Assembly (NCBI GenBank): GCA_000165345.1
Contig: CM000435.1
Location: 1,152,001 to 1,216,000, forward strand
Direction: 5' to 3'
Length of the DNA: 64,000 nucleotides
Shown: positions 6,719-62,356 of the stretch, piece by piece
Layout of the letters: every line of letters starts with the position of its first letter
How positions within the stretch are numbered: position 1 is the stretch's first letter
Position numbers and translations under genes: made by a program
Notes under the pieces: generated by a model
Told to the model about the DNA's origin: nothing
The model's input: the letters and a program-made list of their open reading frames with translations, nothing else
Databases searched by the model: none

Positions 6719-7964
6719 ATTCTCTCTATATTATTATCAAAACTAGCTTCAAATAATTACTTGCCACTTTTCCTTTTTAATCAAATATAATAATTTTATT
6801 AAACTTTTAATTCTTATATTTAAATATGACGAATTTTTAATCAGGTGATCTATTACAATATTTTCTTTCTATTTTACTCTATTTTTCTCACCCAACCAAA
6901 ACTAAACATTATACAATTTTGAACCAAAATTTTAATCTTTCTTTTAATTATAATTCCTGATGAACTTGTTCATTAAAAAAAAATCTTAACTTCTGATTTC
7001 TTCATATAACTCACTTATTGACATCCTACGAAATTATTTCTTCTATTCCTCCCCTAAGTGGGGTACATTCTTCTTACCGCATTCCTTATTTCAGCATTGG
7101 CGCCTTTGAATGACTTCTTTAACATAGCTTTGTTTTTATACAATTTAATTAATTATTAAATAATTTCTGCTTTTATTATGATTAAAAAACTTCTTCTTAC
7201 CACACACACAACAATACCTGGTGATTAATTCTTTATATCTTTTAATACACAAACATTTCTTACTCTTTTCTCCTGATCTCATTCTTTCTAGCATTTTTTC
7301 CATAATCTTAATAAATAAATGTTCGAAAGAGCGCCACGTGTCGGCGCCAATATTTCTTAAATATATATATTTATATATTATTATATAATAAATAATTGGA
7401 ATAATTATTAAATAAGTTATTTAATAAAATATAATTGGTAGTTATGATAGGATAGAAAAACCCCTCTTTATGAACAGCAATTTTGAATAAATATAGGTAA
7501 GGGTTGGTAGAATATTTGTGATATTCAATCAAGCATTTGGTTGATCCTTAAGAATTTAAGGAGTAGTATATTCAAATAACTTCTCTTTAGTATTGGAAGT
7601 TCTGAAATTGCTCATCATAGCATTGAAAATAATCAAAATCTTTTGATTAATTGGAAATCTTTGGTTTTTACTTTGAAGGAAATATTCAAAATAATAATAG
7701 TAATAATATTAAAATAATTCTTTGTATTAATCACTTTAAAATTTAATTCCGTTACTTTGTTGGAAACAATATATTTGAATAAAAGAATAATTTAAATTGC
7801 ATGTATAAATGATACAATTTAATTCTTGAAGATTTATTAGAATAACAATAATTTATATTTGAATAAATAAATAATATATATTGTAAAAATACAAATATTA
7901 ATTTGGATTTATACAATATATTGACCAATAGTTATTTTTTGATTTGAAAATTTAAGATAAAAAG

Positions 7965-9575
7965 ATGACCAATCCAAATAATGAAGAAATCAATATGAGT
8001 GTGAAATTGTTGAATGGCGATATAATTAAAGTTCCAGGAAAAATTGATGCGAAAAAAACTTCAGTATTGAAACTCAAAGAAATCATAAGTAATATTTGTA
8101 GTATTCCAGTTTTTGAAATAAGACTTGTTTGGAAGGACAAAATACTTTCAAATAATGCTTTATTAAGTAGTTATGGAATTGAAGATAATAGTACTTTAAT
8201 TCTTGCTCGTTCTCCATCACGAAGCTCAAATTCATCTTCACAAAGAACTGGAGTCAGCTCTAACTCAAGCTCTAGCATACAAGCAGATTCTGGAGGACTA
8301 TTTGGTGAATCAGATACGGATGACTTTCTTTCTTCAGCTCTTGCATCACCTTGGATGCAAAGTATACTAAATGACCCGGAAATATTTAGAGTGATGTTAG
8401 AATCGAACCCTCAGCTTAAAGCTCTAAGAGAGCAGAACCCTGAACTTAATCACATTTTTAACGATCCCCAATTCCTACAGATGTCTGTTGATGTTTTGAA
8501 GAACCCAGAACTCATGAAAGAAATGATGAGAAACTCGGATAGGGCAATTAGCAATATAGAAAGTATTCCTGGAGGATTTAGTGCACTTAAAAGAATGTAC
8601 CATACAGTTCAAGAACCGATGTGGGATGCTGCAATGTATAACCCAAACACTATTAAAGCAAACACTTATAATGAATATAATATAGATAAAAGTTCTGGAC
8701 CAAACTCGGAAGCCTTACCAAACCCTTGGAGTATTAATAGGAATTCCAGTAATAATAGTAGTAATAGCAATAATATTGGTTCCTCATCCCCAGCTGATAT
8801 ATTTGGAAGTTTTGGCCAAGACGTTTCAGGGCGAAGACAACCACCACTAAATCTATTTCCTTTCAACTTTGGGGTTGGAAATTCCACCAATAATCGTAAT
8901 GATGGTAACTCCAATAGTGATAATAACGTAAATAGCAACTTATTACTACCAGGATTTGCAGGTCTTGGAAACTTTGGTAATATCCCCAATTTTGGAAATC
9001 TAGCAAATTTGGGGATCTTGAATCCCAATATAAGCCAAAATAATGCTTCAAATTCCAATACAAGTACAGACAATAATACTACTATTAATAGTAATACTAA
9101 CAATTCCCAAACAACTCCACAGCTTCCCAATCTGATGAATTTATATTCTCCATTTGCTAATAGTAATCCAAATACAATTCAAACTGTTATTGATGCAATG
9201 AGAAATATGGACATTAATAGTAGAGATGATGCACTTCAGAACCAATTCAACGAATTTATTGGGAATGGAGGTGCAAATACCAATATTGGAAATATTTCTC
9301 AAGGAATCGGAAATGCAAATCTTGGTAACTTGCTCAATATGATTAATGCAGGAAGTCCTTCTATGCAGAATAATGACTCAGGAAACTTAAGTAATATAAA
9401 TAACCAAAATGGCGCTTCCAATAATGGAAATGATAATGGAGGGCAGAATTATAATTACCAACTTGAAGTCCTTTCCAATATGGGGTTTACTGATACTGAG
9501 GCATGCATTAAAGCCCTTACTGAATCTGATGGAAGTATTAATAGAGCGATAGATAAACTTCTCAATCAGAACTAA
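7965..9575 (+). CDS. Ubiquilin / Dsk2-like protein (N-terminal UBL, STI1 repeats, C-terminal UBA)
   Basis: It has the domain order of ubiquilins: a ubiquitin-like fold at the N-terminus (VKLLNGDIIKV...LVWKDKIL), STI1-type repeats (WMQSILNDPEIFRVM, NPELMKEMMRN) and a C-terminal UBA (YQLEVLSNMGFTDTEACIKALTESDGSINRAIDKLL). A long Asn/Ser-rich insert lies in the middle. Confidence 0.8.
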   Translation: MTNPNNEEINMSVKLLNGDIIKVPGKIDAKKTSVLKLKEIISNICSIPVFEIRLVWKDKILSNNALLSSYGIEDNSTLILARSPSRSSNSSSQRTGVSSNSSSSIQADSGGLFGESDTDDFLSSALASPWMQSILNDPEIFRVMLESNPQLKALREQNPELNHIFNDPQFLQMSVDVLKNPELMKEMMRNSDRAISNIESIPGGFSALKRMYHTVQEPMWDAAMYNPNTIKANTYNEYNIDKSSGPNSEALPNPWSINRNSSNNSSNSNNIGSSSPADIFGSFGQDVSGRRQPPLNLFPFNFGVGNSTNNRNDGNSNSDNNVNSNLLLPGFAGLGNFGNIPNFGNLANLGILNPNISQNNASNSNTSTDNNTTINSNTNNSQTTPQLPNLMNLYSPFANSNPNTIQTVIDAMRNMDINSRDDALQNQFNEFIGNGGANTNIGNISQGIGNANLGNLLNMINAGSPSMQNNDSGNLSNINNQNGASNNGNDNGGQNYNYQLEVLSNMGFTDTEACIKALTESDGSINRAIDKLLNQN

Positions 9576-10086
9576 TTATTATATATTACTCTTTAATATT
9601 ACCATTTAAATCTTCTTTCTTTTCAATTATAACCCTGATTTTTGTAAGTTATACATTTTTTAACCTTAAATGCTTGCTGAACATTACATTTGTTTTATCT
9701 ACTTCTAATACTTTAATTTCCTTTCCCCCCTCCCATTTGACTTTTTACTCAAGACTTATATTAACGGTTAGGCATGCACAGACATGCTAGTGGCGCGCAA
9801 ATTCTGCCGCCAATGCATGCAATTTCCATAAATCTATTTTCTTTATGACTTAGATGAATTAATGAAGTAAAAAGGAATTTACTTGCAAATATTTATCCTG
9901 TAAATTTCTTAATTCTTTGTAATTAATGACTTAGAGTATACTAAATTTGAAGAATAGAATCTTTTTTTTGCCAACAATTTGTAACGGGTTAGAATTAATA
10001 ATAGCCACAAGGATAATTATTATTTCAAAAAAGCTTATTTCCAATAATTATTTATTCAATGAGCCCAAGAGAAGCCTAAATTTGAT

Positions 10087-61199: not shown

Positions 61200-62255
61200 C
61201 TATTTGCCTTCTTCATCATCATCCTCAACATTGTCATTTTCATCGAATGGAATGTCCATATCTTCAACACGACCCATTGTTTCATCTTCCTCTTCATCTT
61301 CAGAATCAGAGTAATCAGACTCATTTTCAGATTCAGATGCACTATTGAGATCATTTTTCTCATCATCGCCTCCAACAACTTCAATTTCACCTTGTCTCTT
61401 AAAATCTCCTCCTTTATATTGAGTTATAACATTCTTAATAGTTTCCATCGCTTTTTCAATTGCTTCAACTCCTGCAGCCTTTCCATATGAAACTGCAGTA
61501 ACCAAATATTGAGGTGGAGCAATGAATTTGACTTGGATTTCAACATCGTCCTTGGTAACAGTTTCTTGTCCTGCAATGATTGCATGACGAACAGCATCGA
61601 TACCATCATAGCCACAGCAGCAAACATGGATTCTTGCTCTTAACTTTAACTGTTGTGGAGATAATCTAAACTTAATATCTTGAATGAGAGCTTCTTTAAC
61701 ACTTGCTGGCAAGTCAAATTCTCCGAGTACTGCTTCAGGATTAACAGCTGCCTCCTTGAGAGCATCCAATGCATGACCATACTTTCTATGTAAAGGCCAA
61801 ATCAATTTCTCACTAAGTTCTTCAACTGAAATACCCTCCTTTTGAGCAATATGGCGAACAGTCTGATAAACTTTCTTCATTTTAGAATATTTCTCCTCAC
61901 ATCTCTCAACATCTTCGGGATTTACTCTTCTTTTTGATAGATCAATATAGCCTTTATTCTTGTCTACCCTAAGTACAACAACAACTTCAAGTCTTCCAAC
62001 TCTGGTCAACTTATTAACACTACGAATACGTCTTTTAGATAGCTCTGACATCAAAATCATACCCTCAATATCATTATATTCCAAAAGACTAACAAAAGCT
62101 CCAACCTCTGTTATTCTTTTAACCCTAGCCATAACAAATTCTTCAGGTTCGGGAAACTTATTTTCGTAGAATCTACAATCCACCACATCTTGCTGCTTTG
62201 TCTCCATTTTCAAATCACTCCAAGTATTAAGGATTCTTGTTGATAATAATGCCAA
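61200..62255 (-). CDS. Translation initiation factor eIF2 alpha subunit
   Basis: It has an S1 domain with the regulatory Ser context (MILMSELSKRRIRSVNKL), the conserved middle helical and C-terminal alpha/beta domains, and an acidic tail. Confidence 0.9.
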   Translation of the reverse strand: MALLSTRILNTWSDLKMETKQQDVVDCRFYENKFPEPEEFVMARVKRITEVGAFVSLLEYNDIEGMILMSELSKRRIRSVNKLTRVGRLEVVVVLRVDKNKGYIDLSKRRVNPEDVERCEEKYSKMKKVYQTVRHIAQKEGISVEELSEKLIWPLHRKYGHALDALKEAAVNPEAVLGEFDLPASVKEALIQDIKFRLSPQQLKLRARIHVCCCGYDGIDAVRHAIIAGQETVTKDDVEIQVKFIAPPQYLVTAVSYGKAAGVEAIEKAMETIKNVITQYKGGDFKRQGEIEVVGGDDEKNDLNSASESENESDYSDSEDEEEDETMGRVEDMDIPFDENDNVEDDDEEGK

Positions 62256-62330
62256 TAAAATAAAAGGCTAGTTTATTTTGATCTCTTTTTATTTTCTGTT
62301 ATTAATAATAAATTAATTGACTCTGTCTTT

Positions 62331-62356
62331 GGCGCCAAATTAGCTTTAATACCGGT
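62331..62356. promoter_or_regulatory. TTTGGCGCCAAAT plus TAATACCGGTTAT upstream of eIF2-alpha
   Basis: GGCGCC at 62331-62336 and ACCGGT at 62351-62356, 76-100 bp upstream of the minus-strand ATG at 62255. Confidence 0.5.

Follow-up and report, generated by a model that had tools for sequence, protein, structure and literature searches.

Which short elements make up the promoters of Cryptosporidium, and is the palindrome ACCGGT one of them? Species of this genus have few recognisable transcription factors and their promoter grammar is poorly charted. The question is raised by a stretch of 64,000 nucleotides (nt) from contig CM000435.1 (assembly GCA_000165345.1, positions 1,152,001 to 1,216,000), hereafter the window, in which three word families had been predicted from the letters alone to recur upstream of genes: the E2F-like GGCGCC and GGCGGGAA, the word GCATGC, and a palindrome around ACCGGT, here called the ACCGGT box. 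Our analysis suggests that this box, whose full form is (A)TACCGGTA(T), represents a genuine cis-element shared across the genus and the putative site of a dimeric factor that partners E2F/DP or AP2, a reading to which we give a probability of roughly 0.65.

Judged by its sequence, the window is a gene-dense stretch of C. parvum-type nuclear DNA. Its Cryptosporidium origin, already suspected in the original prediction, is upheld by the eIF3h protein, which matches the C. parvum entry of NCBI at 100% identity, and the window start is identical to CP141124.1 (assembly GCA_035232765.1). The G+C content is ∼31% across the window, 27% in intergenic and 32% in coding DNA. Our gene map is based on open reading frames (ORFs) and contains 28 ATG-ORFs of at least 100 amino acids (aa), which are long, tightly packed and mostly without introns, with 46.6 kb of coding and 17.4 kb of intergenic DNA. 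Pfam matches identified housekeeping genes including those for V-ATPase A, COPB2, RPS20, eIF3h, eIF2-alpha, dUTPase and SSRP1.

Three word families are over-represented in intergenic DNA

An exact search of the window found 17 copies of GGCGCC, 10 of ACCGGT and 15 of GCATGC, where dinucleotide shuffles predicted 0.43, 1.72 and 4.56, respectively, and the observed counts were matched by none of the shuffles. The intergenic share was 16 of 17 for GGCGCC, 7 of 10 for ACCGGT, 10 of 15 for GCATGC and 9 of 10 for TGCATGCA. When all 6-, 7- and 8-mers were compared between intergenic and coding DNA, GGCGCC(AA) and (T)GCATGCA(A) were the only enriched words that were not AT-rich. All 2080 6-mers were also ranked against an order-2 Markov background of intergenic DNA. 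Here GGCGCC came first, TGCATG/GCATGC third to fourth, ACCGGT eighth and CCGGTA ninth, with the G-box and CCCGCC ranking between TGCATG/GCATGC and ACCGGT. The same ranking was made for the pooled intergenic DNA of seven AT-rich species other than C. parvum (the GC-rich C. canis was left out), and gave rank 1 for GGCGCC, 3-4 for TGCATG/GCATGC, 6 for ACCGGT and 8 for CCGGTA. ACCGGT is 7.3-7.4-fold over expectation in the intergenic DNA of both the window and the seven species, with 16 sites in the pooled set compared to 2.2 expected (Poisson P ∼2e-9). None of these words was over-represented in the coding DNA of the seven species, where they ranked 442nd to 1641st and ACCGGT 1062nd.

The recurrence of the three families beyond chance was therefore confirmed, as the same families top the unbiased 6-mer test, and nearly all sites lie within 1-2 nt of where they had been placed. 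Several details changed. GGCGCC had been described as exclusively 5′ intergenic, which holds for all copies except one at 1766 inside the V-ATPase A coding sequence. Three copies of ACCGGT instead of two fall in coding sequence (5129, 13053 and 63490). Among the sites listed as ACCGGT-type, those at 45464, 47204 and 60958 are ACCGGC half-palindromes, and among those listed as GGCGGGAA, the sites at 61024 (GGCGGGGGG), 31709 (GGGCGGGCAA) and 53911/53918 (CCCGCCTAGGCGGG) are looser variants, while exact TTCCCGCC copies at 22179 and 22214 had been overlooked. The claim that the three-element set recurs in nearly every upstream region was overstated: 24 of the 28 upstream regions scored carry at least one element, but a single one, the SET-gene promoter, carries all three. 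The intergenic regions of the window may be regarded as compact promoters written in a small vocabulary of putative protein-binding sites of 6-10 nt.

The ACCGGT box is a palindrome that clusters with E2F-like and TGCATG sites

The bases that follow a bare CCGG are strongly biased in intergenic DNA (T 70%, A 68%, T 59%) compared to coding DNA (31%, 47% and 31%), and the full TACCGGTA is formed by 13 of 44 intergenic CCGG, compared to 1 of 37 coding ones. This flank bias defines the palindrome ATA-CCGG-TAT with the half-site CCGG-TAT. The window holds six exact copies of TACCGGTA, of which five are intergenic, and 12 ACCGG-type sites, and the box is present in 12 of the 28 upstream regions. Of the 12 sites, 11 have an E2F-like or TGCATG site no more than 35 nt away, whereas random placement within the same intergenic region predicted 2.4 (P ∼2e-4). 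In the other species, this was the case for 12 of 23 sites compared to 2.6 expected from the same kind of placement (P ∼2e-4). The partner may be of either type: the box is found with an E2F-like site in six promoters (RPS20, SET, dUTPase, eIF3h, bromodomain and eIF2-alpha) and with TGCATG in four (kinase, SET, 1624-aa gene and 258-aa gene).

The distance from the box to the nearest ATG is 78-433 nt, with a median of 211 nt, apart from six outliers at 636-758 nt. Boxes occur in tandem and in divergent 5′-5′ regions (41813 and 50031), and none was found in the convergent regions of the window, where about two were expected, too few for significance; a role as 3′-end signal of the upstream gene is unlikely.

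The centre offsets between box and E2F-like site cluster at ∼21-24 and ∼31-33 nt, about two and three helical turns, in too few independent promoters for significance (for instance 20101/20124, 45441/45464, 50031/50055, 62331/62351 and 47164-47204). This hints at helical phasing.

We propose that a sequence-specific factor binds (A)TACCGGTA(T), and that it would do so as a dimer, since the site is palindromic. Because the box lies upstream of the ATG and in most cases has an E2F-like or TGCATG site at a distance of 10-50 nt, it is most probably a general partner or promoter-organising site that would cooperate with E2F/DP or AP2, depending on which of these class-specific factors is there. Candidates for the factor would be Myb/SANT, C2H2 or bZIP proteins, or one of the four ApiAP2 proteins for which no DNA binding has been detected.

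Conservation and turnover of the box

Syntenic loci of C. canis, C. bovis, C. ryanae, C. andersoni, C. ubiquitum, C. xiaoi, C. serpentis and C. muris were used for comparison, among them L005 (C. canis, JAPCXA010000035.1), L006 (C. bovis), L007 (C. andersoni) and L008 (C. ryanae) around eIF3h. The eIF3h promoters of C. parvum, C. canis (two copies), C. bovis and C. ryanae all contain ACCGG at 192-208 nt from the ATG, and apart from CCGGTA, CGTCTC and GGCG.CAAA no block is invariant in the alignment of these four promoters. The box also stands at the orthologous position in five of five species compared for the 258-aa gene and the 1624-aa gene, and in three species each for the dUTPase gene and the kinase gene. 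Its conservation ranges from C. parvum through C. andersoni. In the 1624-aa promoter the neighbouring sequence is kept as well: the box is preceded by TGCATGTGGA in C. parvum and C. ryanae and by ACATGTGGA in C. bovis, and is followed in all five species by TGCATGCATGCA (CATGCATGCA in C. andersoni). When intergenic DNA of C. parvum is aligned with that of C. canis, the identity is 0.83 in ACCGG boxes, 0.95 in E2F-like sites and 0.85 in AP2_1 sites, over a background of 0.43.

The C. canis syntenic locus has a G+C content of 51% (intergenic 47%), compared to 25-32% in the other species. E2F sites, TGCATGCA and several ACCGG boxes are retained in its intergenic DNA, and the persistence of the motifs despite this composition makes the locus a useful footprinting partner.

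Several observations weigh against a functional genus-wide element. The box turns over: it reads ACCAGT in the C. ubiquitum SET promoter, it is lost from the eIF2-alpha promoters of C. ryanae and C. muris and from the RPS20 promoters of C. xiaoi and C. serpentis, and the C. muris ankyrin/methyltransferase promoter has a box that C. parvum lacks. Sites in orthologous promoters are non-independent counts. The box is not universal, being present in fewer than half of the upstream regions (the 12 of 28 given above), and six sites are far from any annotated ATG. Published genome-wide MEME/FIRE analyses and motif analyses of the assay for transposase-accessible chromatin with sequencing (ATAC-seq) did not bring up this box, and the silence of these surveys could mean that it is rarer genome-wide than in the window. 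The case for its function is, moreover, built from sequence statistics and conservation. On balance we nevertheless consider it very probable that the box is a real functional cis-element.

Alternative explanations

That composition, chance or the remnants of dispersed repeats produced the excess of ACCGGT is hardly credible. The absolute number is small, with 7 intergenic copies in the window, but no shuffle reached the observed count, the 7-fold enrichment recurs independently in the seven other species, the half-site flank bias is restricted to intergenic copies, and the box is kept against a background of 43% identity. A repeat or mobile element as the origin of the copies was ruled out, as the flanks of the 12 sites are unrelated (identity 0.306, compared to 0.303 in random intergenic DNA). 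More weight is due to a role in the core promoter, where CCGGTAT(ATA) would position RNA polymerase II, either as a TATA box with an upstream extension resembling a TFIIB recognition element (BRE) or as an initiator, and the E2F or AP2 sites would coincide with the transcription start or follow closely behind it. Read on the sense strand, the 12 C. parvum sites are CCGGTATA (6), CCGGTATT (3), CCGGTAC (2) and CCGGTAG (1). Four of them run on as TATATAAA or TATATAG and two more as TATAGC or TATACA, which makes only 4-6 of the 12 TATA-like in their continuation (TATA-box consensus TATAWAW); the orthologues vary. Non-TATA sequence follows many copies, and the surrounding DNA is AT-rich regardless. 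In 13 of 19 cases the E2F-like partner is found on the downstream side of the box, mostly at 20-50 nt, the expected start-site zone behind a TATA box, whereas TGCATG partners are found upstream at least as often as downstream (10 compared to 6). In half-palindromic sites CCGGTA faces the gene 7:0 in C. parvum, but the element itself is symmetric and over all species the bias (16:7) is not significant (P = 0.09), so that a strict orientation toward the gene is weakly suggested. The box is also missing from most promoters of the window. We consider a core-promoter element rather unlikely.

The box might also act as a boundary or roadblock between packed tandem genes, which halts read-through and keeps the downstream promoter free of nucleosomes, as Reb1-type general regulatory factors do in yeast. 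In tandem intervals the box usually stands farther from the gene than any other promoter element, 100-530 nt beyond the stop codon of the preceding gene, which would suit such a role, as would its pairing with differing class-specific motifs. Read-through or polycistronic transcripts have been reported from this extremely compact genome (2025 ATAC-seq preprint). On the other hand, the boxes at 41813 and 50031 stand in divergent regions that have no upstream 3′ end, most tandem intergenic regions have no box, and where there is one, the distance that separates it from the preceding stop codon varies widely, which leaves this explanation improbable. A site for a dimeric partner of E2F/DP or AP2 remains our preferred reading.

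The ACCGGT box in the literature

The original prediction did not regard ACCGGT as a described element, and this was borne out by the text of the motif papers, by those supplements that were consultable and by the tables of a 2025 review (PMC12246861). Neither CCGG nor ACCGG occurs in the text of the motif papers of 2007, 2013 and 2014 (for the 2014 ApiAP2 paper, CCGG is missing from the text, logos and supplements apart), of the 2025 ATAC-seq preprint or of the 2025 review, nor in the supplements of the 2013 paper so far as these could be consulted. ACCGGT is absent from the 25 over-represented C. parvum upstream motifs of Oberstaller 2013 (PMC3734150, Table 1). The review lists six motif families (AP2_1, AP2_2, G-box, E2F, GAGA and CAAT), and its Table 4 gives the specificities of ApiAP2 proteins as AP2_1-like, AP2_2-like, GTGTGT, GCGTGCA, AAAA, G-box or 'does not bind DNA'. 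An ACCGGT-like primary motif is found there for 0 of 18 C. parvum ApiAP2 proteins, and this list does not support a known ApiAP2 specificity as the source of the box. We rejected 'motif4' from the MEME analysis of the paper on long non-coding RNAs (lncRNAs): some instances contain TACCGG, but it is driven by a CCCATACCAGGTGGA tandem repeat and is a different element. In full-text searches, literature pairing Cryptosporidium with ACCGGT or CCGGTA consisted of primers and unrelated papers only. The abstract of Bankier et al. 2003 is said to describe two abundant motifs, not three.

The box has probably not been reported for Cryptosporidium before. We slightly favour the stronger claim that ATACCGGTAT is both real and an unreported third major promoter block of the genus that earlier surveys overlooked. 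If so, a conserved and frequent palindrome would be a concrete, testable addition to Cryptosporidium promoter grammar. ATACCGGTAT could then serve as bait for a new DNA-binding protein, with ATAAATTTAT as its mutated counterpart, and the box would help in the design of minimal promoters for transgenesis in the parasite.

E2F-like and AP2_1 sites

The other two families are known. The attribution of GGCGCC/GGCGGGAA to E2F and of GCATGC to reported Cryptosporidium elements proved right, as the sequences fit the E2F-like motif 3 (DTTGSCGCCH), motif 4 (TTTGGCGGGAAV) and the AP2_1 motif (BGCATGCAH) of PMC3734150, Table 1; the E2F/DP consensus is TTTSSCGC. In the window, DTTGSCGCCH has 13 strand-matches at 9 sites (0.17 expected), TTGGCGGGAA with at most one mismatch was found 9 times (1.6 expected) and BGCATGCAH has 23 strand-matches (1.7 expected). 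On this sequence match, GGCGCC, GGCGGGAA and TTTGGCGCCAAA are the published E2F/DP sites and TGCATGCA is the published AP2_1 site. E2F motifs dominate C. parvum upstream regions (PMC3734150; PMC12246861) as well as sporozoite ATAC-seq peaks (Xiao et al. preprint, 2025), and were also found upstream of lncRNAs in later work. TGCATGCA is bound in vitro by ApiAP2 domains such as that of cgd2_3490, as shown on protein-binding microarrays. Like the published E2F-like motif, the sites in the window have the same sequence, are upstream and non-coding, are often palindromic or doubled and represent the most over-represented word, with no material difference. The AP2_1 sites likewise agree with the published element in sequence, in being intergenic and in being kept in orthologous promoters, again with no material difference; in the window they often form tandem TGCATGTA repeats (41859-41885 and 48704-48730) and adjoin the ACCGGT box. 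For these two families the analysis adds nothing new beyond confirming published work on a chromosome segment.

GGCGCC is much scarcer around eIF3h in C. bovis, C. andersoni and C. ryanae (2, 1 and 1 copies) than in C. parvum (7), whereas ACCGGT, with 3, 4 and 6 copies, reaches or exceeds its C. parvum count of 3. Lineages may thus differ in their reliance on E2F sites.

Two exact TTCCCGCC (GGCGGGAA) sites lie in a convergent 3′-3′ region, where an mRNA promoter is unexpected. Antisense lncRNAs that start from gene 3′ ends often have upstream E2F motifs (PMC7840661), and the pair would fit this pattern.

Promoter modules along the window

The sites are arranged as follows (coordinates in the window; 'unstranded' where no strand was assigned).

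7096-7105, unstranded: E2F-like ATTGGCGCCT in the COPB2/ubiquilin divergent interval
7335-7348, unstranded: CACGTG followed by GGCGCC, same interval
9771-9822, plus strand: module of GGCATGCA, GGCGCGC and TGCATGCA upstream of the Rgp1-like gene (ATG 10087)
15412-15476, plus strand: module of CATGCATGC, two ATGTGGA and CCGGTATATAAAA upstream of the kinase gene (ATG 15834)
20101-20131, plus strand: GGCGCCAAA, 17 nt, ATACCGGTAT in the RPS20 promoter; ATACCGGCAT in C. ubiquitum
20168-20180, plus strand: GAGACGGGATCA box in the RPS20 promoter, kept in four species
22179-22221, minus strand: two exact TTCCCGCC (GGCGGGAA) in the convergent 3′-3′ region between the 21538-22150 gene and the ribophorin-like gene
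24727-24734, minus strand: GGCGGGAA-type E2F-like site 277 nt upstream of the ribophorin-like ATG 24450, kept in C. ubiquitum
25129-25243, minus strand: TGCATGCA, then ATACCGGTAT (25205-25214), GGCGCC (25222) and TGCATGCA (25235); TACCGGTATAG kept in C. ubiquitum
27287-27346, minus strand: TTTGGCGCCAAC, GGTACC, CATGCA and ATACCGGTA in the SET-gene promoter (ATG 27206)
29304-29402, minus strand: three GGCGCC upstream of the PDI/OST3-like ATG 29111, beyond the RNase P RNA 3′ end
33231-33240, unstranded: TTGCATGCAA in a divergent interval, kept in C. ubiquitum
40341-40391, minus strand: TGCATGTGGA-CACCGGTAT-(20 nt)-TGCATGCATGCA, read on the gene strand, in the 1624-aa gene promoter (ATG 40196); module kept in C. 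canis, C. bovis, C. ryanae and C. andersoni
41812-41885, unstranded: ATACCGGTAT adjoining CATGCA and three tandem CATGCATA in a divergent promoter (258-aa gene)
44125-44136, plus strand: E2F-like ATTGGCGCCAAC 144 nt upstream of a small RRM gene (ATG 44272)
45441-45472, minus strand: GGCGGGAA and ATACCGGCAT, 23 nt apart, in the dUTPase promoter; ACCGG in C. canis and C. ryanae
47161-47212, minus strand: CCGGTATATAAAAAT-ACTCGTCTCG-aaatgt-GGCGCCATGGCGCC, read on the gene strand, in the eIF3h promoter
48691-48730, minus strand: GGCGGGAA and TGCATG/CATGCA repeats upstream of the 413-aa gene (ATG 48579), kept in C. canis
50029-50063, unstranded: ATACCGGTACC and TTTGGCGCCAAC, 24 nt apart, in the divergent bromodomain-gene promoter; GGTACCGGAAT in C. 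canis
53910-53923, unstranded: palindromic CCCGCCTAGGCGGG, a double E2F-like site, upstream of an RRM gene, kept in C. canis
56332-56402, minus strand: GGCGCC, TGCATGCA and GGCGGGAA upstream of the 407-aa gene (ATG 56097); TGCATGCA and GGCGCC kept in C. canis and C. ryanae
57925-57944, minus strand: two GGCGCC, 14 nt apart, upstream of the ankyrin/methyltransferase gene (ATG 57819)
60957-60983, minus strand: GTACCGGCAT and TTGCATGCAA, 17 nt apart, in the long interval upstream of the 555-aa gene
62328-62358, minus strand: TTTGGCGCCAAA and ATACCGGTTA, 20 nt apart, in the eIF2-alpha promoter; E2F site and AAAGACAGA kept in C. ryanae and C. muris, ACCGGT box not

In the kinase and 1624-aa promoters and their orthologues, ATGTGGA (often CATGTGGA) lies 3-5 nt upstream of CCGGTA (15425-15470 and 40375-40391 in the window; ∼15540 in L006, ∼17375 in L008 and ∼20490 in L010), and the arrangement ATGTGGA-N-CCGGTA of the kinase module is seen again in C. 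xiaoi. This suggests that the two form a composite element. ATGTGGA resembles the motif A[T/A]G[T/A]GGA.A of oocyst-wall genes (PMC3734150). A further box, GAGACG/CGTCTC, is invariant in the RPS20 promoter (20168-20180) and in the eIF3h promoter (47184-47193), in four species each (L005-L011). GAGACGGGATCA and GAGACG fit the ribosomal-protein promoter motif (A/T/C)GAGAC(A/G) (PMC11078545), and the box also fits motif 10 of Oberstaller, RMGACG (PMC3734150). In addition, CACGTG (7335, 2555 and 29646) and GGTACC (27318, 29323 and 50034) are over-represented intergenically in C. parvum and/or other species (z 6-9). Some copies of GGTACC overlap ACCGGTACC, and 23 of 26 G-box-type words in the window are intergenic. 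The SET promoter contains GGTACCCGTGAT, which is kept in C. ubiquitum, and a run of 12 C (G on the opposite strand) at 25175-25186 lies ∼20 nt from the ATACCGGTAT box in the SET/ribophorin-like interval.

Other features of the window

The 2.6-kb 'empty' interval between the PDI-like gene and the 456-aa gene contains a nuclear RNase P RNA at 29547-29806 on the minus strand (58 bits, E 4e-14) and a SNORD36-like C/D box small nucleolar RNA at 31326-31407 on the minus strand (43 bits). A tRNA scan of the window found none. A two-exon gene on the plus strand at 21538-22150 (exon 1 ∼21538-21675, exon 2 ∼21760-22150) is absent from the ORF map. It has 70-83% translated identity (tblastx) to a 172-aa gene of C. 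ubiquitum, and the C. serpentis gene at the syntenic position has a weak FeS_assembly_P match. With this gene recognised, 22151-22437 becomes a convergent 3′-3′ region. The 1624-aa ORF (35322-40196, minus strand) shows a very strong strand asymmetry at 36-38 kb, with a GC skew of -0.48 and an AT skew of -0.45, and its product has no Pfam match. The region 36001-40000 within this ORF may be a long low-complexity or repetitive coding region, as its composition suggests.

Comparison with known promoter palindromes

The Grainyhead/CP2 site AACCGGTT shares the ACCGGT core and the palindromic symmetry of the box, but the box is flanked by TA..TA and not by AA..TT. Of the intergenic half-sites, 68% carry A and 15% T at position +2 behind CCGG, thus CCGGTA and not CCGGTT, and a Grainyhead/CP2 site was rejected. 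To our knowledge, this family is restricted to animals and fungi. General promoter palindromes bound by architectural factors include the Drosophila DNA replication-related element (DRE) TATCGATA, bound by DREF/BEAF-32, and the Reb1 sites of yeast. Like the box, these are short (near-)palindromes in many housekeeping promoters, next to class-specific sites. Their sequence differs and the likeness is an analogy of role only; we know of no homologous factor in Cryptosporidium.

A match in sequence is found in oomycetes, where TACCGGTA is known as M94 of Phytophthora infestans, as motif-9 GTACCGGTA (Seidl 2012) and as streme-5 ATACCGGTAT of Plasmopara halstedii. There, too, the same palindrome of 8-10 nt is abundant upstream of genes and emerged from de novo discovery as a predicted site. 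In contrast to the Cryptosporidium box, it belongs to stramenopiles, not alveolates, and is tied to infection-stage and effector genes. We take the resemblance as a lead toward an old shared factor and not as evidence of homology, and think it doubtful that the link reflects shared ancestry. If it did, the motif and its factor would be an ancient pair that spans the SAR (stramenopile-alveolate-rhizarian) supergroup.

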